A DNA stretch of 24,000 nucleotides from Methanolapillus ohkumae. GTDB taxonomy: Archaea > Halobacteriota > Methanosarcinia > Methanosarcinales > Methanosarcinaceae. Every line of letters begins with the position of its first letter. Position 1 is the first letter of the stretch. A model generated the notes under the pieces. That model did no database searches and was not told where the DNA came from. It was given only the letters and a program-made list of their open reading frames with translations. Shown here piece by piece: positions 3 to 24,000 of this stretch. The stretch covers positions 1,580,011-1,604,010 of the forward strand of contig NZ_CP131061.1 in assembly GCF_032594355.1 (NCBI RefSeq), given 5' to 3'. The position numbers and the translations under genes were made by a program.

Positions 3-752
3 ATTCGGACGCGGACGGTTCCGGATTCACTTTGGGGAAAGTTGCTGCTGCTGACATTTCCAATTTTAATATTGGAAACCATGAAAATCGGAGCAGAAAT
101 CGGGATTGGATCCGGATTTCAATATATTTTTCAAATCTTTTTTTCCGGACTTTTGATGTTTGTGGCCAGCACCGGACTTTTTTACATGAAAATATTCGGT
201 GGTGCCGACGCCAAAGCACTCATTTGCTTGTCTCTTATTTTTCCGGTTTCGTTTGCGGACATTTTCTCCGCTTTGAATTCCATCGCTTTGGCAACGCTTT
301 TGAATTCCGTTCTTTTTGTGTCTTTCTTGCCAATCTTGTTTTTTTTGAAAAATCTATTCCATTTAAAAAATCAAAATCAAACTCAGAAAATGAATTTTGA
401 CCTGCTTTTGTGTGGAATCGGATTTAGAACCGATATCCCAAAAATAATTCAAAAAAGTAAATCCGGGAAAGATTTTTATTATTTGCTGCTCCTGGAACGG
501 TATGATTTCTCAAGTCCGGACCCAGCGTCAACAAAAAAAATCCGGCTGCAAGGAATAGATTTTCGAGACGAGAATGAAACGGTGTACACTTGCCGGCTTT
601 TGGAATCCATCCAAAGCGGAAAAATCAGCAAAAGCGGATGGGTGACGGTGGGATTGCCGTATTTGGTTTGGATTGCCGCCGGATTTGTTGCCGCCCTATT
701 TTTTGAAAACTTAATTTTAAAAATTATTTTAAAAATCATTGTTTTATTTTGA
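3..752 (+). CDS. A24-family aspartic membrane peptidase (archaeal preflagellin/prepilin peptidase, FlaK/EppA-like); 5' end lies outside the window
   Basis: The frame is open from nt 3, with no stop before the listed TTG at 42. It reads ..IRTRTVPD.., then polytopic hydrophobic segments and 'FGGADAKAL'. These match the two catalytic-Asp contexts of A24 peptidases. Stop TGA is at 750-752. Confidence 0.7.
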   Translation: MRTRTVPDSLWGKLLLLTFPILILETMKIGAEIGIGSGFQYIFQIFFSGLLMFVASTGLFYMKIFGGADAKALICLSLIFPVSFADIFSALNSIALATLLNSVLFVSFLPILFFLKNLFHLKNQNQTQKMNFDLLLCGIGFRTDIPKIIQKSKSGKDFYYLLLLERYDFSSPDPASTKKIRLQGIDFRDENETVYTCRLLESIQSGKISKSGWVTVGLPYLVWIAAGFVAALFFENLILKIILKIIVLF

Positions 753-3554
753 TTTTTTGCCGGATTCATTTTTTGCCGGATTCATTTTTTGAAGAAGAAA
801 AGCTTTGACCAAGCGGGTTTCGCCGTCAGAACAATCTTTGCCGGACCGCTCGACAATGACGGAAGTCTCCAACCGTTTTAGAAATTCCAACTGAAGGCTT
901 TGGATAATATTTTCAATTTCCGCCTGCCTCTTTTCAAAAACAAGACCGGATAAATGAGTAATCCGGCCGGCCAAAATCAACGCTTCCAAATGAGCCGTGA
1001 TTTTAGAGACGGAAAGACCACGAATCTCAGAAATCTCACCAGCGGATAAGCCTTGGGAATATAATTTGTAGGTTTTATTCAAATCATCTTCGGAAAAAGA
1101 CTCACCCGATGCGAAATTTTTTTTCAAATCCATGCCCAAATCAGAATCGGAATCCAAATTCATATCCGAATTCATGTCCGAATTCATATCAGGATCAAAC
1201 TCAATTTCCGAACTCAATTCCAGATCTGAATTCGATTCAGAATCAGACCTCGATTCCAAATCCGAATAAGAATTTGAATCAAAATCCGAATCCGGTTTTG
1301 ATTTTTTTATTTTGGATTTGCTTTTATCCGAACCGGAAACATTTTGTGAACTGCCGGTAGCGGATTCCTCTCCCAAATAATCGACGATTTCCACAATAAA
1401 CAGGCGTCCATACTTATGAAGTTTGTATTCGGCAACGCCTGAAATTTTCAAGAAGGAAACGTCATCCGTCGGAAAATCAGTCGCCATCTGGCGCAAACTG
1501 GTGTCCGCAAAAATGATGTACGGCGGAAGATTCTTTTCGCTTGCGATTTTTTTCCGAAGGATTTTGAGGCGGTCAAACAAAACCGGATCAAAGCTGCCTT
1601 TTTTAACTTTTCTTGCCGGCGGCTTATCAAAAGAATCCAAAGCGGAAACCTTTGTCTTCGATTTTGGTTTTGAGCCGGATTTCGGAGAAACGGGTTCCTC
1701 AAAGGACACCGGACCTTTTTTAGAGGCGGGAACCGAAATCTGATTTTTCTCCAATTCCTCCGACAAAAGAGAGCGTTTGCCGTTATAGACCATGGCCCCG
1801 CCGGATTCATCCGCCCCATCTTCCGATTCATTGTCAAAGCCTGCATCAAAATCAGAATCGGATTCGTTGAAATCAGCCTTAAAATCAGAGTCCGGTTCTT
1901 TGGAATCAACAAGTTCGCCGGCAAATTCATCATTGTCAAAGTCAAGCGGTTCAGATTCAAAATCCGACGGGTCGGCGTTAAATACGTCCGGCTCGGGTTT
2001 CTTCCCGGCTTCGGAAATATGAGAAATCAGCGGCTGTGTCAATTCAACCGTCAGCGTTCCCGCCGTAATTTTTCGGCTCTTTTCATTCAATTTGACAATC
2101 GGGTACCGCTCCCCGCTGACACTTAAATATCCGGACTGAATGAGTTCATTTCCGACACGTTTCCACTCGTCCTTAGAATAATTCTTTCCGGAACCATGAG
2201 CGTCCAACCGGTCGTGCCGAAATTCTTTGACTTTTTTGGTTTTGGCGCCGTACAATACATCAATCACATGCGACAGCCCGAATTTTTGACCGGTCTGGGA
2301 AATACAATCAATCAAAAGACAGGCTTGCGCCGTTCCGTCAAACTTTTTCCGGGGGCGCAGACAAGAATCACAATTGTCGCACGGCTCCGTCCAATTTTCC
2401 CCGAAATATCTCAAAAGTGTATTTCTGCGGCACTCCGTACTTTCGCAATAGCTCATAATTTGAGACAGCTGTTGGAAAGCCAAATCGCGCTCCTTTTTGC
2501 TCGGCTTTTTCTCAATGAAAAAACGGATTTTGTGCCAGTCCCCGCGGTTGAAAAAGAGAATACATTCGCATTCCAACCCATCCCGACCGCCGCGTCCTGT
2601 TTCCTGATAATAGCTTTCCAAATTTTTCGGCAAATCGTAATGAATCACGAAACGAACGTCGGGTTTATCAATGCCCATTCCAAAAGCGACCGTGGCAACA
2701 ATGATATCCACATCGTCGCGGATAAATTTTTCCTGGTTTTTGGAACGTTTGGAATCCGCAAGTCCCGCATGATACGGCAAAGCCGAAAAACCGGCTTTCG
2801 TAAGCCTTTCCGCCAACCGCTCCACCGTCTCCCGGCTTTGACAATAAATAATGCCGGATTTTTTGCGGTTTTTTTTCAGATAAGAAATAATTTGTTCGTT
2901 GGGATCCTTTTTTTCAATAATTTTGTAAGATAAATTCGGGCGGTTGAAACTGGAAATCACCACAACCGGATCTTTCAGGTGCAGAACTGATACGATATCC
3001 TTGCGCACCCTCTCGGTTGCGGTCGCCGTCAGCGCAATCATGCTGACATTTGGAAAATGAGTCCGCAGTTCGGACAGTTTTCGGTATTCCGGGCGGAAAT
3101 CATGCCCCCATTCGGAAACGCAATGCGCTTCATCAATCGCAAACAAACTGATATTGATTTTTTGAAGCAAAGAAAGAGTTCCCGGCATCATCAGCCGCTC
3201 GGGCGCCATATAAAGGATTTTGAGTTTTCCATCCGTTAATTTTTTTCGGACTTCCACAAATTCGGAGTCGGATAGCGTACTGTTCAAATACGCGACGGAA
3301 ATTCCGTCCGCCAAAAGTCCGTCCACTTGGTCTTTCATGAGTGAAATGAGCGGTGAGACCACAATTGCCGTTCCTTTCATCATCAGTGCCGGGATTTGGT
3401 AACATAAAGATTTACCACCTCCGGTCGGCATGAGAACAAAAACATCTTTTCCCTGCAAAACGGATTCAATCACTTCTTCTTGGTTCGGGCGAAAAGAAGT
3501 AAACCCAAAGTTTTTTTCAAGAACCGTTTTCATTTCAGTCCGAAGGCTTGTCAT
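744..3554 (-). CDS. recQ: ATP-dependent DNA helicase RecQ, long form with low-complexity acidic inserts, an HRDC-like block and a C-terminal HTH-like tail
   Basis: It contains 'FGFTSFRPNQEEVI', the Walker A motif 'MPTGGGKSLCYQIPAL', the DEAH box 'FAIDEAHCVSEWGHDFRPEY' and 'YCQSRETVE..LPYHAGL'. The zinc motif C-x16-C-x2-C-x2-C is present as 'CRRNTLLRYFGENWTEPCDNCDSC'. An HRDC-like block reads 'LFDRLKILRKKIASEKNLPPYIIFADTSLRQMA'. Confidence 0.93.
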   Translation of the reverse strand: MTSLRTEMKTVLEKNFGFTSFRPNQEEVIESVLQGKDVFVLMPTGGGKSLCYQIPALMMKGTAIVVSPLISLMKDQVDGLLADGISVAYLNSTLSDSEFVEVRKKLTDGKLKILYMAPERLMMPGTLSLLQKINISLFAIDEAHCVSEWGHDFRPEYRKLSELRTHFPNVSMIALTATATERVRKDIVSVLHLKDPVVVISSFNRPNLSYKIIEKKDPNEQIISYLKKNRKKSGIIYCQSRETVERLAERLTKAGFSALPYHAGLADSKRSKNQEKFIRDDVDIIVATVAFGMGIDKPDVRFVIHYDLPKNLESYYQETGRGGRDGLECECILFFNRGDWHKIRFFIEKKPSKKERDLAFQQLSQIMSYCESTECRRNTLLRYFGENWTEPCDNCDSCLRPRKKFDGTAQACLLIDCISQTGQKFGLSHVIDVLYGAKTKKVKEFRHDRLDAHGSGKNYSKDEWKRVGNELIQSGYLSVSGERYPIVKLNEKSRKITAGTLTVELTQPLISHISEAGKKPEPDVFNADPSDFESEPLDFDNDEFAGELVDSKEPDSDFKADFNESDSDFDAGFDNESEDGADESGGAMVYNGKRSLLSEELEKNQISVPASKKGPVSFEEPVSPKSGSKPKSKTKVSALDSFDKPPARKVKKGSFDPVLFDRLKILRKKIASEKNLPPYIIFADTSLRQMATDFPTDDVSFLKISGVAEYKLHKYGRLFIVEIVDYLGEESATGSSQNVSGSDKSKSKIKKSKPDSDFDSNSYSDLESRSDSESNSDLELSSEIEFDPDMNSDMNSDMNLDSDSDLGMDLKKNFASGESFSEDDLNKTYKLYSQGLSAGEISEIRGLSVSKITAHLEALILAGRITHLSGLVFEKRQAEIENIIQSLQLEFLKRLETSVIVERSGKDCSDGETRLVKAFLLQKMNPAKNESGKKSK
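752..791. repeat. 16-bp tandem duplication 'attttttgccggattc' x2 plus a partial third copy, inside the last codons of recQ
   Basis: Copies lie at 752-767 and 768-783, with a partial copy from 784. The repeat abuts the stop of the convergent peptidase gene (750-752). Confidence 0.8.
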
Positions 3555-14200: not shown

Positions 14201-15313
14201 ATGGATCCAAATAAATTCAAAAACAAAGAGATGTCAAAACGGGAATGTTTAGAACTGTTTGAGAACGATGCGATTTTTTTTGACACTCTCCATGCGGCCG
14301 ACAGTGTCCGCCGGGATCTTTGCGGAGATGTTGTTACCTACATCCTAAACGCCAACATTAATTTCACAAACGTTTGCACCGGAACATGTCAATTTTGTGC
14401 GTTTAAGGTTTCCAAGAATCATCCGTCCGCGTTTTTTTTAACGCCCGAGCAAATCGGACAAAAAGCCTGCGATGCGAAAATGGCAGGCGCGATTGAAGTG
14501 TGTGTCCAGGGAGGATTGCTTCCGGAAATTGATACGCATTATCAGGTTGAAATTCTCAAAAACATTCGCAAGCAAACCGGTCCGCTCGGCGGAATTTCCA
14601 TTCATGCGTTTTCACCCATGGAGGTTTTTGCCGCTGCTGAAAATGCCGGCCTGGATTTAAAAACCGCTCTGACGATGCTCAAAGAGGCCGGATTGGATTC
14701 TATCCCGGGGACCGCTGCCGAAATATTGGTAGACGATGTTCGAAAAACATTGTGCCCGGATAAAATTTCAGCGGACGAATGGGAAAAAGTAATTACTGCC
14801 GCGCACAAAACAAAAATTCCGACCACCTGCACCATCATGTACGGTCATATTGAAGAAAATGAAGACCGTGTGGAACATTTATTCCGGCTTAAAAAGATTC
14901 AGGAAGAAACCGGTGGATTTACAGAATTTATCCCGCTTACGTTTTTACATGAAAACACGCCGCTTTCCAAAAGAGGACTTGTGGAAAGCGGCTCTTCCGG
15001 GCTTTTGGATTTGAAAATGTATGCAATCCCCCGTCTTTTGTTTAAGGAAAAATTGCCCAACATTCAAGTGTCGTGGGTCAAATTGGGAACCAAGTTCAGT
15101 CAAGTCGGGCTTTGCGCCGGCGCCAATGATTTTGGCGGAACGCTAATGGAAGAGAATATATCAAGAGCGGCCGGCTCAAAATATGGATCTTCCATGACCC
15201 GGCAAAAAATAGAAAATTGCATCCGGCAAATCGGACGTGTTCCAAAACTTCGAAACACGCAATACAAAATCATTGATGAATCTCAACAAAAAGGTTCGAT
15301 TCCGGTCTATTAA
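14201..15313 (+). CDS. cofH: Radical-SAM enzyme of the CofH/CofG/MqnC-E family, most likely FO synthase subunit CofH
   Basis: It contains 'NINFTNVCTGTCQFCAF' (C-x3-C-x2-C), 'EVCVQGGLLPE', 'SIPGTAAEIL', 'TCTIMYGHIE', 'GGFTEFIPLTF' and 'GANDFGGTLMEENISRAAG'. cofD lies 1.2 kb downstream. Confidence 0.7.
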   Translation: MDPNKFKNKEMSKRECLELFENDAIFFDTLHAADSVRRDLCGDVVTYILNANINFTNVCTGTCQFCAFKVSKNHPSAFFLTPEQIGQKACDAKMAGAIEVCVQGGLLPEIDTHYQVEILKNIRKQTGPLGGISIHAFSPMEVFAAAENAGLDLKTALTMLKEAGLDSIPGTAAEILVDDVRKTLCPDKISADEWEKVITAAHKTKIPTTCTIMYGHIEENEDRVEHLFRLKKIQEETGGFTEFIPLTFLHENTPLSKRGLVESGSSGLLDLKMYAIPRLLFKEKLPNIQVSWVKLGTKFSQVGLCAGANDFGGTLMEENISRAAGSKYGSSMTRQKIENCIRQIGRVPKLRNTQYKIIDESQQKGSIPVY

Positions 15314-15344
15314 ATCAAAACCAATCGTAAAATGAAATGAAGAG

Positions 15345-15378
15345 CGACACGAAATGAAAAACGACACGAAATGAAAAA
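15345..15378. repeat. 17-bp direct tandem repeat 'cgacacgaaatgaaaaa' x2
   Basis: The copies lie at 15345-15361 and 15362-15378, between the cofH-like gene and the permease gene. Confidence 0.8.
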
Positions 15379-15414
15379 GGCGTAGAATTAAGATTAAATA
15401 GAACTTCCAACTCA

Positions 15415-16392
15415 ATGGAAAATCCTGTTTATTCAAATGAAAATTATTCAAACTGCTTCAATCGTGATTTCATGGATATTATTTTTGTCATTGTGATTTT
15501 GATTTTACTGGGTTTTTTTCTCAAATATTTCGGCATTCTTTCCGAAAAGGATAAAGTGGCACTGAATAATATTGTGATCTATGTGGCGATTCCCGCCACG
15601 CTTTTTTTGTCTCTTCTCAGAAATGTCGACGCGAAGGATTTGGGTTCTTATTTTAAATTAACGATTTTCATTTTAATCATTACCCTTGCCTGTGCTGTCC
15701 TCGCTTATGGAATCGGAAAACTTTTAAAAATGGATATTAAGTCGTTGGCCGCCTTTATTTTGGTGGCGTGTTGCGGCAACACAGCCTTTATGGGATTTGC
15801 CATCGCCACCGGATTTTATGGCGTCGACGGCTTTATCCGCGCGATTTTTTGCGACACCGCCACTCTTTTTGTCATCATCATTTTAGGAACGTACCTGGGG
15901 ATTAAAGTGAGCGGGCGAAAGGTCAGTCTGCTTAAACAGGTTGTTCGATTTCCGCCGATGATTGCTTGGGTCGTGACAATTGTTTTGGTGATTCTCGGAT
16001 TTCAAATCAGCATGCTTCCGGCGTTTGTCGTCACAACGCTTGGGTATTTATCCGGAATTATGGTTCCCTTGATTATGATTTCATTGGGACTGTCCTTGTC
16101 TCCCAAATATCTCAAAGTTGCCGCCATTCCGGCGATTCTTGTCACCGTCATTCAATTATTTTTCGCGCCGGCTCTTGCGGTTATTCTTTCCAATTTTTTT
16201 GCATTATCGGGATTAGACCGAAACGTCGCCATTTTGCAAGCCGGAATGCCGCCGGCAATGACACCCCTCGTGTTTTCCGAAATTTATGGCATGAATTCAA
16301 AACTCATCTCCGGTGCCACTTTTTTGGCGACGGTTGTGTCCTTGGTTTCAATTCCGGCTTTGCATATGATGCTGGATGCGGGATGGATTTAA
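15415..16392 (+). CDS. AEC-family (auxin efflux carrier-type) membrane permease
   Basis: The product has about 10 hydrophobic segments. 'CCGNTAFMGFAIATGFYG' and 'ILQAGMPPAMTPLVFSEIYG' resemble the two AEC repeat signatures. The ATG at 15472 (MDIIFVIVILILLGFFL..) is the more family-typical start. Confidence 0.65.
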   Translation: MENPVYSNENYSNCFNRDFMDIIFVIVILILLGFFLKYFGILSEKDKVALNNIVIYVAIPATLFLSLLRNVDAKDLGSYFKLTIFILIITLACAVLAYGIGKLLKMDIKSLAAFILVACCGNTAFMGFAIATGFYGVDGFIRAIFCDTATLFVIIILGTYLGIKVSGRKVSLLKQVVRFPPMIAWVVTIVLVILGFQISMLPAFVVTTLGYLSGIMVPLIMISLGLSLSPKYLKVAAIPAILVTVIQLFFAPALAVILSNFFALSGLDRNVAILQAGMPPAMTPLVFSEIYGMNSKLISGATFLATVVSLVSIPALHMMLDAGWI

Positions 16393-16549
16393 AAAACCAA
16401 AAAAAAACAAAAAAACTAAAAAAAATGAGGACAATTAAAATAAGAGGAGCCAAAATTAAAATATTTTGACAATTTATTTGAAATGAAATTATTTTTTTAT
16501 CTTTAAAAAAGGTTATATTAAAAAATGACATTGTGAGGCATTTTTTCAA

Positions 16550-17554
16550 ATGATTGTTCTTTCCGGCGGAACCGGCACCCCAAAACTGATTGACGGCCTT
16601 CGGGCCTGGCTTCCCGATGAGGAAATTTCCGTGATTGTTAACACCGCCGAAGACATTTGGATTTCGGGAACATTTGTCTCGCCGGATGTCGATACCGTTT
16701 TGTATCTTTTTTCCGGTGATTTGGATAAAAACCGATGGTGGGGGATGACAGATGAAACGTACACGACTTACAACCAACTCAAAAAGATGGGAAAGCCCGA
16801 ACTTTTGATGCTTGGGGACCGAGATCGGGCAAACAATCTGATCCGGACCGAACTGCTTAAAACCAAAACGTTATCTTACGCGACCTTGGACATCGCAAAA
16901 AAACTTGGCGTGAACGCGAACATCATTCCCATGTCGGATGACCCGGTCAAAACCCGGATTTTTACGCCCGAAGGCGTTATTCATTTCCAGGATTTTTGGG
17001 TCGGAAAAAAGGGCGCTCCGGATGTTTTTAATTTCAGTTACTTTGGCATAAAGAATGCGAAAATTTCTCCAAGAGCGAAGACGGTCCTTTCCAAAGAGAA
17101 CTATGTGATTATCGGTCCCAGTAACCCGATGACCAGTATCGGTCCGATGTTAGCGCTTCCCGGGATGCGGGAAATTTTGAAAAATAAAAAAGTGATTGCG
17201 ATCAGCCCGATTATTGGAACGGAACCGATCAGCGGGCCGGCGGGAAAACTCATGAAAGCCAAAAAAATGGATGTGACGGCAAAAGCCGTTGCCGAATTTT
17301 ATCAAGATATCATTGACATTTTCGTGTATGACATTCGGGATACCGTCATCAATCCGGAAGAGATTCGAAATATGGGAATCAAACCGGTTGCGTTTGACAC
17401 GTTGATGACAGATTTTGAGAAGAGAAAAGATTTGGCGGAAAAGGTTTTGGAATTGTTGGATGTATCCAAAAATAAAAAGCAGGCCCAGGCTCATCAACTC
17501 AACCGGCCTTTGAAAAAACCATCCGGCCGAAAGCCGTGTCGCCGAATTGCCTGA
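16550..17554 (+). CDS. cofD: 2-phospho-L-lactate transferase CofD (F420 biosynthesis)
   Basis: The N-terminus reads 'MIVLSGGTGTPKLIDGL'. Further motifs are 'DVDTVLY', 'IIGPSNPMTSIGPML' and 'VIAISPIIG..PISGPA'. A ~25-aa basic C-terminal tail is atypical for the family. Confidence 0.85.
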   Translation: MIVLSGGTGTPKLIDGLRAWLPDEEISVIVNTAEDIWISGTFVSPDVDTVLYLFSGDLDKNRWWGMTDETYTTYNQLKKMGKPELLMLGDRDRANNLIRTELLKTKTLSYATLDIAKKLGVNANIIPMSDDPVKTRIFTPEGVIHFQDFWVGKKGAPDVFNFSYFGIKNAKISPRAKTVLSKENYVIIGPSNPMTSIGPMLALPGMREILKNKKVIAISPIIGTEPISGPAGKLMKAKKMDVTAKAVAEFYQDIIDIFVYDIRDTVINPEEIRNMGIKPVAFDTLMTDFEKRKDLAEKVLELLDVSKNKKQAQAHQLNRPLKKPSGRKPCRRIA

Positions 17555-19831: not shown

Positions 19832-19930
19832 ATGGATGAACAACAAAAGAAATACTTAACTTATGGCGCCGTTGCGATTGTCATTATTTTAATCGTTGCG
19901 CTTGCGGTTTATTATTTCTATTACATGTAA
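19832..19930 (+). CDS. 32-aa membrane mini-protein (MDEQQKKYLTYGAVAIVIILIVALAVYYFYYM), related to the N-terminal anchor of the paralog starting at 23343
   Basis: This is my own translation. A GAGG Shine-Dalgarno-like sequence lies ~9 nt upstream. Compare MDKNTQNYLIVGAIVAIVIVAALLFFFY at 23343. Confidence 0.4.
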   Translation: MDEQQKKYLTYGAVAIVIILIVALAVYYFYYM

Positions 19931-20105
19931 TATTTTTTTTCCGGTTTCTTAATTTTGATTTTACGTTAATATTTAAACCGGAGTTTTTAATATTTAAACC
20001 GGATGGTTTTATTTAAAGGAATTGTCTCAAAAATCGAAACGACTAAACTCGTTTTTGATTTTTGTTTCTTTTTTATTCAAATTCAAAATCAATCAACTTA
20101 ATGCG

Positions 20106-20288
20106 ATGAAAGGCACTTGGTCGATTGATCCGTCCGGCCCGTGTTCCTATGTTTTTGATGTGGACAATAGCGAGGAGGACTTAAAAGCAAAAATGGTTGG
20201 AAATGTTCTTGTTTTTGAACCGTTTGATTATTCCGGTAATAAAGAATGGAATGTGAAAGAATTCGTTTTGAGCCATCCAATTATCTAA
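20106..20288 (+). CDS. 60-aa single-module relative of the secreted paralog family (the ORF track lists a TTG-started 88-aa version from 20022)
   Basis: 'MKGTWSIDPSGPCSYVFDVDNSEEDLKAKMVGNVLVFEP..NVKEFVL' aligns with 'GTWETGGSGYVFTFGG..AILNADGNLEFV' and with the 'FDFEEFVLK' end of the paralogs. It has no signal sequence if translation starts at 20106. Confidence 0.45.
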   Translation: MKGTWSIDPSGPCSYVFDVDNSEEDLKAKMVGNVLVFEPFDYSGNKEWNVKEFVLSHPII

Positions 20289-20321
20289 CACTCAAATCAT
20301 TAGCGAACAAGCACAAATTTG

Positions 20322-20363
20322 GATTTTGAATTGAAAATCAAAATCAATTCAAAATCTTTTTTT
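20322..20363 (+). terminator. Hairpin 'gattttgaattga' / 'tcaattcaaaatc' (13 bp) followed by T7
   Basis: The arms lie at 20322-20334 and 20344-20356, and the T run at 20357-20363. Confidence 0.6.
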
Positions 20364-20596
20364 ATTTTTTCATAAATGTGAAGCGGTTTTTCATATATTT
20401 TTTGATGTTTCTTGATTTTTTTCTTGTTGAAACAGCATTATCTACTAATTTTTATAAGTTTGCGGAAAAAAAAATGTGAAATTGATTTAAAATCCGCGTA
20501 GTTGTTGTCATTGTCTCATTTTTCTGATTTATAGTAATATTTGTGTAAGAACTTGTTTTTTGATTATATATTATTAAAAATATTTATATACCGTTT

Positions 20597-20640
20597 TGAC
20601 AATCTATTGTCGATGCATAATGATTTTTGCATCAACAATA
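20597..20640 (+). promoter_or_regulatory. Nested palindromes built on ACAAT/ATTGT in the leader of paralog 1
   Basis: 'gacaat ct attgtc' lies at 20597-20610. 'tattgtcgatgca' at 20605-17 matches 'tgcatcaacaata' at 20628-40 at 12 of 13 complementary positions. The region lies downstream of the TATA-like 'aaatatttatata' and upstream of the ATG at 20685. Confidence 0.35.
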
Positions 20641-20684
20641 TTTACAGAATAATGAGTTAAATTGACATTTATGGGGCGATATTT

Positions 20685-21752
20685 ATGAACTCGAAAAACA
20701 CAAAAACATTATTCGCAATTGCGTTGATTGCAATTGTTATTTTTGCGGTCGCCGCAAGCGGCTGTACGACCAAACCCCCTGTCGAAAATGAAAGTTCGAC
20801 ACCAACCCCTCCGGAACAACCCAAGAATGAGTCAAATGGTTCCGGTTCAGCCGATGGAAATGGCTCATCCGATGGAAACGGCTCAACGAATGAAAGCACG
20901 CCGGCCACGGGTAGCAACACCGATAAACCGGTCATTCATGTGATTCCGTCAACCGGTGGCGGCGGCTCTTCTTCGGGTCCCTCCTCCATTGTCGGATTTT
21001 GGAAGGTGAACAGTTTGGCTGGAACGATTGGTGAAACAGATGTGGATGAAACGGATGTGAGTGGTGGAAGATATTTCATTGTTTATCCGGACAATACCTG
21101 CGACTTTGAAATTGGAATAGAAGAATATGTTTCAGGAGATACGGGGACTTGGGAAACAGGTGGTTCCGGCTATGTTTTCACATTTGGCGGAACGGATGTC
21201 AATGCCATATTGAATGCGGATGGAAATTTGGAATTTGTTGACGGTTTTAATTTCCACGATGAAGGGATTGACGGTGAAGTCACCGAACTCATTTTGGAAG
21301 AAACTCTTCCGGAAAATTGGAAAGTCATCACAATGAACGCAACTGTAACAACTCCTGTGGGTGACGATCTTGACCTGACTGAAGAAAACATTAGTGAAGA
21401 GGGCAGTAACTTCTTCACATTCACGGTTTCAACACCCGATAACACATTTACTGAAAGCCTGGACTTGTCCGTCGACCTGGACGGGGAAGGAGAAGATGGT
21501 CCGACTGAAGGCAATATCGAAGTGAGTGACGGAACCTGGGAAGTAGACAAATCGACCCGCGATTCCGGAGATTTCATTTTGAAATCTGTCGATGGAGCCG
21601 TCATAACTAAGGCTAAATTGACATATGATTCAGAAAGCGAAGAATCCTATCCGTGGATTTTAACATTTACACCATATGACTTCACAACCCCTGGAAATTA
21701 TGTGTTTGATTTCGAGGAATTTGTTTTGAAATTCTTGGGTTTTGAATTATAA
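20685..21752 (+). CDS. Paralog 1 of an uncharacterised extracellular protein family: lipobox-like signal (..VAASGC), sequon-rich stalk, two-module acidic body
   Basis: The N-terminus is 'MNSKNTKTLFAIALIAIVIFAVAASGCTT', and six N-x-S/T sequons lie at aa 35-70. The blocks 'KPVIHVIPSTGGGG', 'IVGFWKV', 'GTWETGGSGYVFTF', 'LILEETLPENW', 'GTWEVDKSTRDSGDFIL' and 'FTTPGNYVFDFEEFVLK' are shared with the ORFs at 21931 and 23343. Confidence 0.8.
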   Translation: MNSKNTKTLFAIALIAIVIFAVAASGCTTKPPVENESSTPTPPEQPKNESNGSGSADGNGSSDGNGSTNESTPATGSNTDKPVIHVIPSTGGGGSSSGPSSIVGFWKVNSLAGTIGETDVDETDVSGGRYFIVYPDNTCDFEIGIEEYVSGDTGTWETGGSGYVFTFGGTDVNAILNADGNLEFVDGFNFHDEGIDGEVTELILEETLPENWKVITMNATVTTPVGDDLDLTEENISEEGSNFFTFTVSTPDNTFTESLDLSVDLDGEGEDGPTEGNIEVSDGTWEVDKSTRDSGDFILKSVDGAVITKAKLTYDSESEESYPWILTFTPYDFTTPGNYVFDFEEFVLKFLGFEL

Positions 21753-21769
21753 ATTCAATCAAAGTGGTT

Positions 21770-21809
21770 TGAATTGATTTTTAAAAAATCAATTCAATTT
21801 TTTATTTTT
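21770..21809 (+). terminator. Hairpin 'tgaattgattttt' / 'aaaaatcaattca' followed by T6-a-T5
   Basis: The arms lie at 21770-21782 and 21784-21796. The arm sequence is the same as the hairpin after paralog 2. Confidence 0.6.
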
Positions 21810-21930
21810 AAATGTCGTAAATATCATTTTTTGAGCATCTTGTTTTTGTTTTTGAGTGAATATTTTTTTCTGAATGCAAATTCTTATTCTTAAAAAAAAT
21901 CAAAAACGGAATTTACAGAGGTGAAAAATT

Positions 21931-22923
21931 ATGGATTATGAAAAATTAAAAGTTCCTATCGGGGTCCTTATTATTCTTCTTTTTATTATTGCCGCTCTTT
22001 TTTTAATCAGTTCAAGCGGCTGCTTTAACAGCCCGGAAAATGAGACAATTAATGAAACGAATGAGACCGGCGATGTAGCGCCGCCAAAACCCGACCCTGA
22101 GCCGTCCAATGGTACAGAGAATAGAACAGAGAATGAAAAACCGGTCATCCAAGTGATTCCAACGATTGGCGGCCGGTCCACATCAGACTCGGCATCCATT
22201 ATCGGATTTTGGAGAGTGAAAACCATTGTTTTTGAAGAAACGCCGGATTCTTTCCACCAGGGTCAAATTATTGCCGTTTATCCCAATAACTTGTGGGCTC
22301 GCAATGAATACGACACCCCCATGTGGGCCTGGAGACAATCAGGCTCGGACTATATTTTTACGGTTGGTGAAGGAGAAGGATCCTTTGATATTACTGCAAA
22401 ACTGAATGATGATTGTGAGTTGGAATTTGACCCCTATGACGACTCTCCCGAAAACCCGGTGACAACTCTTGTAATGGAAGAAACACTTCCGGAAGATTGG
22501 TACGTTGACTCTTTGGAGGCAATGGTCGAAATTCCGGATACCGGTGAGATCTCTATTGGTGAGGGAAATATCGTGATGGATCCAAATTATTTTACTTTCG
22601 ACGTTGACATCTATTTTGATCCGAGCGATTTTTCCGGAAAGTTGGGATTAAAAAAATCAGTGGAGGGGGAGGATCCAGACGGCATCGTTGAATATGGCGG
22701 AACCTGGGCCGTTAATAAATCCACCCGTAATTCCGGAGATTTCATTCTGACCGTGAGCGAAGGTTCAAGTGCGGGAAATTACAATGTGAAATTAGAATGT
22801 GATATTTCCAATGAAAACCCCTGGTCATTGGTATTTGAAGAACATAAGTTTACGACGCCTGGAGAATATAAATTCGATGTGGATGAGTTTATTTTAAAAC
22901 TAAAATTTCCGGAACCGGAATAA
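21931..22923 (+). CDS. Paralog 2 of the same family (lipobox-like ..ISSSGC)
   Basis: A GAGGTGA Shine-Dalgarno sequence lies 6 nt upstream of the ATG. The product reads 'LFIIAALFLISSSGCFN', with the sequons NET, NET, NET, NGT and NRT. It shares the blocks 'KPVIQVIPTIGG', 'IIGFWRV', 'LVMEETLPEDW', 'GTWAVNKSTRNSGDFIL' and 'FTTPGEYKFDVDEFILK'. Confidence 0.8.
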   Translation: MDYEKLKVPIGVLIILLFIIAALFLISSSGCFNSPENETINETNETGDVAPPKPDPEPSNGTENRTENEKPVIQVIPTIGGRSTSDSASIIGFWRVKTIVFEETPDSFHQGQIIAVYPNNLWARNEYDTPMWAWRQSGSDYIFTVGEGEGSFDITAKLNDDCELEFDPYDDSPENPVTTLVMEETLPEDWYVDSLEAMVEIPDTGEISIGEGNIVMDPNYFTFDVDIYFDPSDFSGKLGLKKSVEGEDPDGIVEYGGTWAVNKSTRNSGDFILTVSEGSSAGNYNVKLECDISNENPWSLVFEEHKFTTPGEYKFDVDEFILKLKFPEPE

Positions 22924-22930
22924 TGATTTT

Positions 22931-22964
22931 TGAATTGATTTTTTCAAAAATCAATTCATTTTTT
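22931..22964 (+). terminator. Hairpin 'tgaattgattttt' / 'aaaaatcaattca' followed by T6
   Basis: The arms lie at 22931-22943 and 22946-22958, 8 nt after the stop codon. Confidence 0.6.
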
Positions 22965-23082
22965 CTTTTTTTAACTTTCTTTTTTTAATTTTTTTAACTT
23001 TCATTTTTTCTTTTTTTAACTTTCTTTTTTTAATTTTTTTAACTTTCATTTTTTCTTTTTTTAACTTTCTTTTTTAATTTTT
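22957..23082. repeat. 45-bp T-rich tandem repeat: 2 identical copies plus a ~36-bp third copy
   Basis: 'cattttttctttttttaactttctttttttaatttttttaacttt' occurs at 22957-23001 and 23002-23046, with a partial copy from 23047. It contains the internal sub-repeat 'tttttttaactttc'. Confidence 0.9.
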
Positions 23083-23342
23083 CAAATGAATTCTTTTTTC
23101 ATTTTTGACTCTTTTTTTCCGCTCGCTCTCATTGTTTTTATATTTCAGCCATGAAATAAAAAAATGAGACTATTTTTATTTATTTCAATTCATTTATTTA
23201 ATATATTTTATAAAATTTTAGAGGAAGTGCAAAAATTATTATACAATTATTCCCTTGAAATAATTATCACACAATTATAATTTTTCATAAAAATTATAGA
23301 TGTGATTAAACGAGTGAATATTTTTTATATGGGGTTGACATT

Positions 23343-24000
23343 ATGGACAAAAATACACAAAATTATCTGATTGTGGGTGCCATTGTTGCCATCGTAATTG
23401 TTGCCGCTTTATTATTCTTTTTCTATTCCGGCAATGACGACAACACACCGCCCGCAACAAATACCACACCAAACACACCATCCAACACATCAAATACATC
23501 CAACACATCAAATGCGACAAATGAAACCGCAAACACAACAAACAGTACGGGAGCCGGTTTATCGAGTTTGCCGCCGATTGTTGTCACGCCATCTCTTGGT
23601 GGCGGCGGTTCTACGTCTTCCAAGGTTTCTCCGGTCGGATATTGGAAAATCAACGATGCTGACATCTCCGTCACATATGGAGAGGAGGGTTCAGAAGATT
23701 TGGATGAAGGCGATTATACTGACCAATATATGTGGATAGACTATGATGGCACATGCTATATGGAAATTGAAGCATTTGGCATATCCATGGACAGCGACGG
23801 CACTTGGAACTACACCGGCTCGGACAGCTATGAATTCTATATGGAAGACTTTAATGCCACCGCCCGTGCAACAATGGACAGTGAGGGAAACTTAGTCTTT
23901 GTGAGCGGCATTCATTTTGAAAATTCCACCGATACTGATTACGGAGTAATCGAAGGAACCATTTCAACGCTCGTTTTGGAAGAAACGCTTTATAATGAAT
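23343..24000 (+). CDS. Paralog 3 of the same family (TM-anchored, no Cys lipobox); 3' end lies outside the window
   Basis: This is my own translation; the ORF is absent from the track because no stop occurs before the window ends. It reads MDKNTQNYLIVGAIVAIVIVAALLFFFYSGNDD, then NTT/NTS/NAT/NET sequons, then 'LPPIVVTPSLGGGG', 'PVGYWKI', 'DGTWNYTGSDSYEFYM', 'DSEGNLVFV' and 'TLVLEETLYNE'. Confidence 0.8.
   Translation, partial: MDKNTQNYLIVGAIVAIVIVAALLFFFYSGNDDNTPPATNTTPNTPSNTSNTSNTSNATNETANTTNSTGAGLSSLPPIVVTPSLGGGGSTSSKVSPVGYWKINDADISVTYGEEGSEDLDEGDYTDQYMWIDYDGTCYMEIEAFGISMDSDGTWNYTGSDSYEFYMEDFNATARATMDSEGNLVFVSGIHFENSTDTDYGVIEGTISTLVLEETLYNE

Follow-up and report, generated by a model that had tools for sequence, protein, structure and literature searches.

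What are the products of the three consecutive, same-strand genes at the right end of this stretch of the Methanolapillus ohkumae genome (24,000 nucleotides in all, referred to below as the window), and what might such proteins do for their owner? The source organism, strain Am2, came from the hindgut of a millipede and is a methyl-reducing methanogen (PMC11362671), and the first of the three proteins is 100% identical to its WNY27576.1 (also P0001). All three are annotated as 'hypothetical'. We report that they are paralogues with a common architecture, in which an N-terminal anchor, a stalk and a hinge precede a head made of two homologous modules, and that the same head caps much longer proteins in two sister species. 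On balance, sequence and structural modelling make it probable, if by no means certain, that these are tethered, N-glycosylated surface proteins with a double-barrel head for ligand binding or adhesion. The genes are as follows.

20685-21752, + strand: paralogue 1 (p1), MsAm2_13780, open reading frame (ORF) of 355 amino acids (aa), annotated 'hypothetical'
21931-22923, + strand: paralogue 2 (p2), MsAm2_13790, ORF of 330 aa, annotated 'hypothetical'
23343-24000, + strand: paralogue 3 (p3), MsAm2_13800 (P0003), 219 of 332 aa inside the window, annotated 'hypothetical'

Since the full p3 product has 332 aa, its gene ends about 340 nucleotides (nt) beyond the window.

A tandem array of an undescribed family

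The first-pass annotation of this DNA had proposed a tandem array of an uncharacterised and rapidly diverging family, and both the ORFs and their kinship are as it described. The similarity of p1 to p2 (34% identity over 356 columns, E 3e-47) and to the part of p3 within the window (38% over 157 aa, E 1e-12) is far above chance, with the bodies that follow the leaders being 24-41% identical to one another within this one genome. None of the three proteins matches a Pfam or NCBIfam family, and profile searches of the PDB at sequence level returned nothing at E <= 0.01 (the best values, 0.12 and 0.017, are at chance level); the Methanosarcina S-layer protein family (MA0829 type) is likewise without a match in p1-p3 in Pfam, NCBIfam or PDB sequences. 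Among some 15 billion sequences, each protein forms a singleton cluster named 'hypothetical protein'. No match of the whole body to a characterised family was thus found in these collections. The segments of the three proteins, which are the basis of what follows, are these.

20685-20765, + strand: p1 signal/anchor with lipobox-like AASGC end and Cys27; the sole hydrophobic segment (Kyte-Doolittle maximum 2.72)
20766-20924, + strand: p1 stalk, rich in N/S/T/P/G by composition, with 6 sequons
20925-20984, + strand: p1 hinge, KPVIHVIPSTGGGGSSSGPS, conserved in 9 members from 3 species
20985-21311, + strand: p1 N-module (barrel 1), AlphaFold pLDDT 89.3, 10 beta strands, lipocalin/calycin top matches
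21312-21749, + strand: p1 C-module (barrel 2), homologous to the N-module, pLDDT 50-70, with an acidic low-confidence insert (<50)
21931-22023, + strand: p2 anchor, SSSGC end
22024-22137, + strand: p2 stalk
22138-22194, + strand: p2 hinge
22195-22491, + strand: p2 N-module
22492-22920, + strand: p2 C-module
23343-23432, + strand: p3 transmembrane anchor, YSGN end, without Cys
23433-23567, + strand: p3 stalk, holding 9/18-nt repeats at 23479-23513
23568-23627, + strand: p3 hinge
23628-23993, + strand: p3 N-module
from 23994, + strand: p3 C-module, ending about 340 nt past the window

The head: a duplicated module with a predicted lipocalin-like fold

The bodies of p1, p2 and p3 are strongly acidic (51-56 Asp plus Glu, against 9-15 Lys plus Arg), and the conserved islands noticed at first reading are all present in the alignments. 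What had been taken for a two-module body is more precisely a tandem duplication of one module of about 110 aa, since profiles built from the first and second halves of eight sequences each align over 108 columns with 97.5% probability and an E of 7e-12 in hhalign, a result with which a local hhalign run agreed. The signature common to both modules reads W ... DG(T) ... GTW.(Y/V)(D/N).ST..GD(Y/F)(I/L)F ... A.L...G.L.F ... L.L.

An idea of the fold came from AlphaFold models. The N-module alone, modelled from nine homologous module rows, gave a confident prediction (predicted local distance difference test, pLDDT, 89.3; predicted template modelling score, pTM, 0.80) of an all-beta domain with ten strands. 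The whole body, modelled by AlphaFold2 from four sequences, reached a pLDDT of 67.8 and a pTM of 0.70, with values of 76-91 in the first module, 50-70 in the second and less than 50 in its acidic insert. When the N-module was compared with the PDB by Foldseek, nothing was found at E <= 1e-3, and the top 50 matches were almost all lipocalins or calycins (probability 0.8-1.0, E 6e-3 to 8.5e-2, TMq 0.36-0.56), including odorant-binding proteins, prostaglandin-D synthase (PGDS), Bla g 4, tear lipocalin, OMCI, MUP and FABP/CRABP, together with the Bacteroides 'lipocalin-like' lipoproteins 5byp and 4qrl and potempin E. In Pfam, Lipocalin_4 (PF13648) is the only recurrent family, matching 2 of 17 modules (E 0.019 at best), without reaching its gathering threshold and without matching the whole proteins. 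In the small-form N-modules, a G-x-W stands at the first strand. The early hunch that the GTW...Y.F motif recalls small lipocalin-like barrels is therefore supported, with weak scores, at the level of fold class, and no membership of a curated family is established.

How close is this likeness? Like the lipocalin-like proteins (Lipocalin_4, 4qrl, 5byp and the classical lipocalins), the modules, of about 110 aa, are predicted to be all-beta and probably up-and-down barrels, and the former are also often anchored as lipoproteins. However, the scores linking the two are sub-significant (Foldseek E 6e-3 or weaker; Pfam E 0.019), and the modules described here are duplicated in tandem and carried on a stalk predicted to be glycosylated. 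Classical lipocalins, moreover, have a C-terminal alpha-helix packed against the barrel, whereas the predicted 109-aa N-module has no helix of four or more residues and ends on a strand (95-107). For the whole body, the best Foldseek match was the two-barrel lipoprotein NlpE of Escherichia coli (PDB 2z4i; E 5.7e-3, probability 0.94), with a poor TM-score of 0.21-0.28 and no sequence similarity. NlpE combines a lipid anchor, a flexible tether and two small beta-barrels, as proposed here, but its two domains differ in fold and the comparison is an analogy only.

The leader: anchor, stalk and hinge

Each of the three proteins (whole-protein isoelectric point 4.05) has a single hydrophobic segment by the Kyte-Doolittle scale, and it is N-terminal, as expected for the anchor originally proposed. 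In archaea, lipidation of a lipobox has been established in Haloferax, the motif being [L/V/I] at -3, [A/S/T/V/I] at -2, [G/A/S] at -1 and Cys at +1, after a hydrophobic signal region (PMC12462473). The anchor ends in A-S-G-C in p1 (AASGC) and in S-S-G-C in p2 (SSSGC), both of which fit at -2, -1 and +1 but not at -3. Like the Haloferax volcanii lipoproteins handled by the AliA/AliB pathway, these two proteins have a putative N-terminal signal and [A/S]-G-C after the hydrophobic region; p3, with Y-S-G-N, has no Cys. This agrees with the initial view of two lipobox-like anchors and one plain transmembrane anchor, and because a large M. africanus paralogue with a leader of the p3 type ends in YSGC, the p3 leader looks like a lipobox leader that has lost its Cys. 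A PGF-CTERM/archaeosortase anchor (a C-terminal PGF motif plus a transmembrane helix) is not seen in the three proteins, their only hydrophobic segment being N-terminal and their C-termini reading ...VLKFLGFEL, ...KLKFPEPE and ...CILSWAT.

The stalks of p1, p2 and p3, of 55, 39 and 47 aa, contain 6, 5 and 8 N-x-S/T sequons, respectively. Their density, at 11-17 sequons per 100 aa, is 15 to 23 times that of 12 other window proteins (0.73 per 100 aa), and shuffles that preserve composition reach the observed counts in fractions of only 0.0025, 0.0005 and 0.008. The stalks, which are predicted to be exported, thus display the enrichment in sequons that is a trait of archaeal N-glycoproteins. The stalk DNA also contains in-frame tandem repeats, of 18 nt at 20843-20885 in p1 and of 9/18 nt at 23479-23513 in p3, encoding GSADGN... 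and NTS NTS... tracts, which suggests a simple route to changes in stalk length through slippage-driven variation. The hinge that follows, (K/L)P(V/P)I.V.P..GG..S, is retained in nine family members from three species. On this low-complexity leader also fell the weak, sub-threshold Pfam matches to DUF1180, New_glue, MG2, PExPT-CTERM and LppA, which we rejected.

The same head on longer proteins in sister species

When p2 was compared by phmmer with 1.84 billion (1.84e9) representative sequences, only four matches were returned, namely p1, p2, p3 and one M. africanus protein, a count that is a lower bound because two further M. africanus proteins (Ma_337 and Ma_350) and the small M. millepedarum protein were missed. 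Word-indexed searches were uninformative for the small proteins: full-length p1 was swamped by words from its stalk, and the body profile returned p1 alone although relatives are in the collection, so that absence there is no evidence. A metagenome scan yielded zero family relatives.

The M. africanus relative sits in a syntenic locus, directly downstream of corA. There, the order is corA, a 32-aa ORF, proteins of 855, 338, 854, 930, 938, 863, 337 and 350 aa, a 118-aa stalk-only lipoprotein and, finally, a Na/Ca-exchanger gene. M. millepedarum has a minimal version of this array: corA, the 32-aa ORF, a small form of 329 aa, a GLUG form of 856 aa, a stalk-only gene of 135 aa and the Na/Ca exchanger. 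Family content between corA and the exchanger gene therefore differs widely, with nine genes in M. africanus (three small, five large, one stalk-only), three in M. millepedarum (one small, one large, one stalk-only) and at least three in M. ohkumae (three small genes and a fragment). The stalk-only lipoproteins (135 aa at L003 12816-13223 in M. millepedarum; 118 aa at L004 15864-16220 in M. africanus) have a lipobox leader and a long tract of nearly pure N-x-T repeats, and end in GGFIHVT or GGFIHVQ. They are conserved as the rightmost family genes, immediately before the exchanger gene, in both species, and synteny suggests that at least one such gene also lies beyond the window in M. ohkumae.

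The family is thus not isolated, for its leader and body are, by sequence, common to GLUG-motif proteins of the sister species. The large M. africanus proteins (about 855-938 aa) exceed the Pfam cut-off for GLUG (PF07581) with 36-50 bits against 20.5; they and their M. millepedarum counterpart (e.g. MsAg5_07620-07650, P0005-P0009) have an anchor/stalk/hinge leader as in the small forms, then a GLUG-repeat core of about 500 aa, then the shared head. Five GLUG proteins of M. africanus and one of M. millepedarum have a C-terminal stretch of about 235 aa that matches the small-form body from end to end; scores against the body hidden Markov model (HMM) range from E 1e-72 to 1e-77 for sequences used in building it, with 3.5e-39 for an independent one (Ma_L5). 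It follows from the sequences that the double-barrel head would sit either directly on a stalk or at the far tip of a GLUG-repeat core. The large proteins also share with the window proteins the corA locus and a 3' hairpin (see below), but p1, p2 and p3 lack the core of about 500 aa, with no GLUG repeat found in them by Pfam at E <= 1, and their heads fall in a separate clade, with only 17-29% identity to the heads of the large proteins. In a neighbour-joining tree of heads the small forms stand apart from the large ones, and the three M. ohkumae copies group together, p1 and p2 being closest (41%); finer relationships are unreliable because branches are long.

A profile search with the large proteins found full-length relatives in M. 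africanus and M. millepedarum only, and retrieved no large GLUG-plus-head protein of M. ohkumae; its other matches (mostly in gut Clostridia and Treponema, plus Methanimicrococcus blatticola) cover the GLUG core only. Together with the metagenome and cluster results, this leads us to conclude that, in the databases searched, the family is defined by a genus-restricted double-barrel head.

Rate of change

The rapid divergence claimed at the outset is readily measured. The CorA proteins of M. africanus and M. millepedarum are 80% identical, whereas the positional small-form homologues of these two species share 33-35% of their residues. Non-synonymous divergence (dN, Nei-Gojobori) is 0.68 for the small form and 0.095 for corA in that comparison, that is, amino acids change about seven times faster, and spans 0.62-0.76 over family pairs against 0.095-0.24 for corA. 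Synonymous divergence (dS) in the family is saturated at 1.65-1.94, giving dN/dS ratios (omega) of 0.36-0.41. The family is fast-evolving yet constrained overall. A pattern typical of diversifying selection had been suggested; the fast divergence stands, but with dS saturated and omega near 0.4 such selection is neither shown nor excluded.

Proposed gene cassettes and the left end of the array

A palindrome, GAATTGA-N(3-14)-TCAATTC, occurs three times in the window, each time 9-40 nt past a stop codon, after p1, p2 and a gene remnant described below.

20328-20350, + strand: hairpin and T-run after the remnant (folding energy -14.1 kcal/mol, z -4.0)
21771-21795, + strand: hairpin and T-run after p1
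22932-22957, + strand: hairpin and T-run after p2

Seven copies are present in the M. africanus locus (L001 9713, 11031, 13862, 17032 and 20107; L004 12602 and 14106) and there is one exact match in that of M. millepedarum (L003 12588). All copies lie 3' of family genes and nowhere else in those loci, where the chance expectation is about zero, and each family gene that was checked has one, with a T-run, behind its stop codon. The hairpins have stems of 11-14 bp (-10.6 to -14.6 kcal/mol) followed by a U-run, with a compensatory difference in the stem next to the loop (GAT/ATC in M. ohkumae, GAAC/GTTC in M. africanus and M. millepedarum). Most simply, the hairpin would be a terminator or 3'-end element copied along with its gene, and possibly a recombination hotspot. 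At the other end of each gene, a GGGG or GAGGTG motif upstream of the start codon resembles a ribosome-binding site. An Rfam search of the window found no match, and a sigma-70 promoter/terminator scan, which uses a bacterial model not applicable to an archaeon, found no enrichment. In the p2-p3 spacer, directly after the hairpin, lies a T-rich 45-bp tandem repeat (22955-23082, 2.9 copies, 98% matches).

The first-pass annotation had begun the family interval at 19832, which proved not to be the start of a family gene; two separate elements lie between corA and p1.

19832-19930, + strand: single-transmembrane small ORF of 32 aa (MDEQQKKYLTYGAVAIVIILIVALAVYYFYYM up to the stop), left boundary of the array, adjoining the divergent corA
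19998-20288, + strand: truncated, leaderless, solitary module, about 75% of one barrel module, by HMM match

The 32-aa ORF is found, with equal length, downstream of corA in three species (also L003 8267-8365 and L001 6592-6690), and its sequence, MDEQQKKYLTYG...YYYYM, is conserved in the three Methanolapillus species, synonymous and non-synonymous codon differences standing at 9:6, 14:6 and 9:2. A TATA-like box and a leader of about 100 nt are conserved upstream of it, but the sequence downstream is not. Although it is 47% identical to the N-terminus of p3 and aligns with the MDEQQKK-type leaders of two large paralogues (Ma_L2 and Ma_L4), its constant length across the three species, with changes that are mostly synonymous or conservative, led us to reject the idea of a mere pseudogene stump; it may instead be an ancient 5' stump that has been kept, or else an independent micro-protein. 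Between it and the truncated module is a 21- to 22-nt direct repeat, TTAATATTTAAACCGGATGGTT, of 2.1 copies (19966-20011).

The truncated module matches positions 25-102 of the N-module HMM (E 7e-7) and, less well, the C-module HMM (E 3e-4). The family hairpin comes after it, and neither M. africanus nor M. millepedarum has a counterpart. By its sequence it is probably the 3' remnant of a decayed paralogue. Each gene is a cassette of its own, composed of ribosome-binding-like motif, leader, head and the family-specific hairpin with its T-run. The locus, bounded by corA and, in the sister species, by the Na/Ca-exchanger gene, rapidly gains, loses and reshuffles such cassettes.

Two further groups of genes in the window deserve a brief mention. 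Positions 744-3554 encode a RecQ-type helicase of 936 aa that has RQC, HRDC and HTH_40 domains, and at 14201-17554 the genes for a CofH-like radical-S-adenosylmethionine protein and CofD, which are ordinary F420-biosynthesis genes, flank a Mem_trans-family transporter gene.

What could the proteins do?

The model that we favour runs as follows. A Sec-type N-terminal signal would insert the protein so that its N-terminus stays in the cytoplasm. The lipobox-like SGC of p1 and p2 would receive a lipid (a thioether-linked archaeol, as in Haloferax) and their signal would be cleaved off; p3, with Asn in place of Cys, would keep its helix uncleaved as the anchor. The sequon-dense, Pro/Thr/Ser/Asn-rich stalk would be N-glycosylated and act as an extended spacer under and through the S-layer, with the conserved hinge connecting it to the acidic head. 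This head, consisting of two homologous lipocalin-like up-and-down beta-barrels, would be the working part, as a ligand-binding or adhesion module. These methanogens are immotile and S-layered, attachment to the gut wall has been proposed for them (PMC11362671), and an adhesion role has been proposed for the GLUG proteins acquired by the related M. blatticola (PMC9723798). An adhesion-type role is suggested by the distal position of the head on GLUG adhesin-like proteins, by the expansion and fast turnover of the locus, and by the life of these immotile, S-layered colonisers of the gut wall. Comparable proteins are the adhesin-like proteins of gut methanogens (Methanobrevibacter, Methanomassiliicoccales and M. 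blatticola), which are likewise lineage-specific, expanded and fast-changing, and have been proposed to attach host-associated, non-motile methanogens (PMC9723798; PMC11362671). Those proteins, however, are defined by Flg_new, GLUG, Big and collagen-binding domains, and the double-barrel head is not among the domains described.

Several points weigh against this model. Lipocalin-like barrels commonly bind small hydrophobic ligands rather than mediate adhesion, the C-module is poorly modelled, and the gene-wide omega is below 1. Position -3 of the putative lipobox is Ala or Ser in place of Leu, Val or Ile. In addition, the related M. blatticola has lost almost all its glycosyltransferases except AglJ and AglB (PMC9723798), as a result of which any glycan on the stalk may be minimal. 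Finally, export, lipidation, glycosylation, surface display and expression, like the binding function and its ligand, are predictions drawn from sequences and models.

The main rival is that the proteins are tethered scavengers, whose two barrels would bind a hydrophobic or scarce nutrient (a lipid, a vitamin or a cofactor precursor) for a genome-reduced, auxotrophic methanogen, so that their counterparts would be substrate-binding lipoproteins or bacterial lipocalins, and not adhesins. Ligand-carrying lipocalins (odorant-binding protein, PGDS, tear lipocalin, OMCI, FABP) are indeed the best fold matches, and an anchor of the lipoprotein type is typical of binding proteins. We nevertheless consider this rather unlikely, since no transporter gene is linked to the array, a nutrient site would normally be conserved in contrast to the divergence of the bodies within one genome, the identical type of head caps long GLUG adhesin-like proteins, and true lipocalins have a C-terminal helix that is missing from the modules.

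Less probable still is a structural or shielding part in the envelope, with no specific adhesion, the proteins being S-layer-associated, glycosylated acidic spacers or protease inhibitors like the potempins of Tannerella. Potempin E is among the best fold matches (TM 0.46-0.52, probability 1.0), the body is very acidic and the stalk heavily laden with sequons, and the stalk-only lipoproteins conserved at the array end in two species suggest that the glyco-stalk may serve some purpose by itself. However, neither potempins nor the Methanosarcina S-layer protein resemble p1-p3 in sequence, and the rapid divergence and changes in copy number would be unusual for structural parts of an envelope. 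That the small genes are merely GLUG-type genes in decay after deletion of the core, and do little or nothing in M. ohkumae, would explain why only the core is missing from an otherwise shared leader and head, why a truncated module lies next to them and why no large GLUG-plus-head protein of this species was retrieved, but is most improbable given that each of the three species has intact small forms, which make up a clade of their own (and hence predate the species split), that their frames are open, with GGGG/GAGGTG motifs and terminator hairpins in place, and that an omega of about 0.4 indicates constraint.

Returning to surface proteins with a binding or adhesion head, a bolder version is conceivable, which we put forward only tentatively. 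The corA-flanked locus would be a hypervariable surface-protein island of exchangeable cassettes, built from two leader types, short or GLUG-extended presenters, the genus-specific double-barrel head and a private terminator hairpin (a possible hotspot of recombination or duplication), and the head would be an undescribed host- or partner-recognition domain whose rapid change tracks the arthropod host or the gut-wall niche.

Perspectives

The locus adds a new domain family, used in a modular way, to a kind of protein that is well known, namely the lineage-specific surface/adhesin-like proteins of gut methanogens. Current ideas are not overturned, but the head would merit a new domain-family entry. 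The natural coexistence of leaders with and without Cys makes these proteins useful substrates for studying lipoprotein processing in Methanosarcinales, and they could also serve as N-glycosylation substrates in a lineage where M. blatticola has lost nearly all glycosyltransferases. Attachment to the hindgut wall is thought to let immotile, methyl-reducing Methanosarcinales persist in arthropod guts. The locus described here supplies candidates for this attachment, in the form of a genus-restricted head presented on a short glyco-stalk or a long GLUG core, with a copy number that varies sharply among three sibling species.

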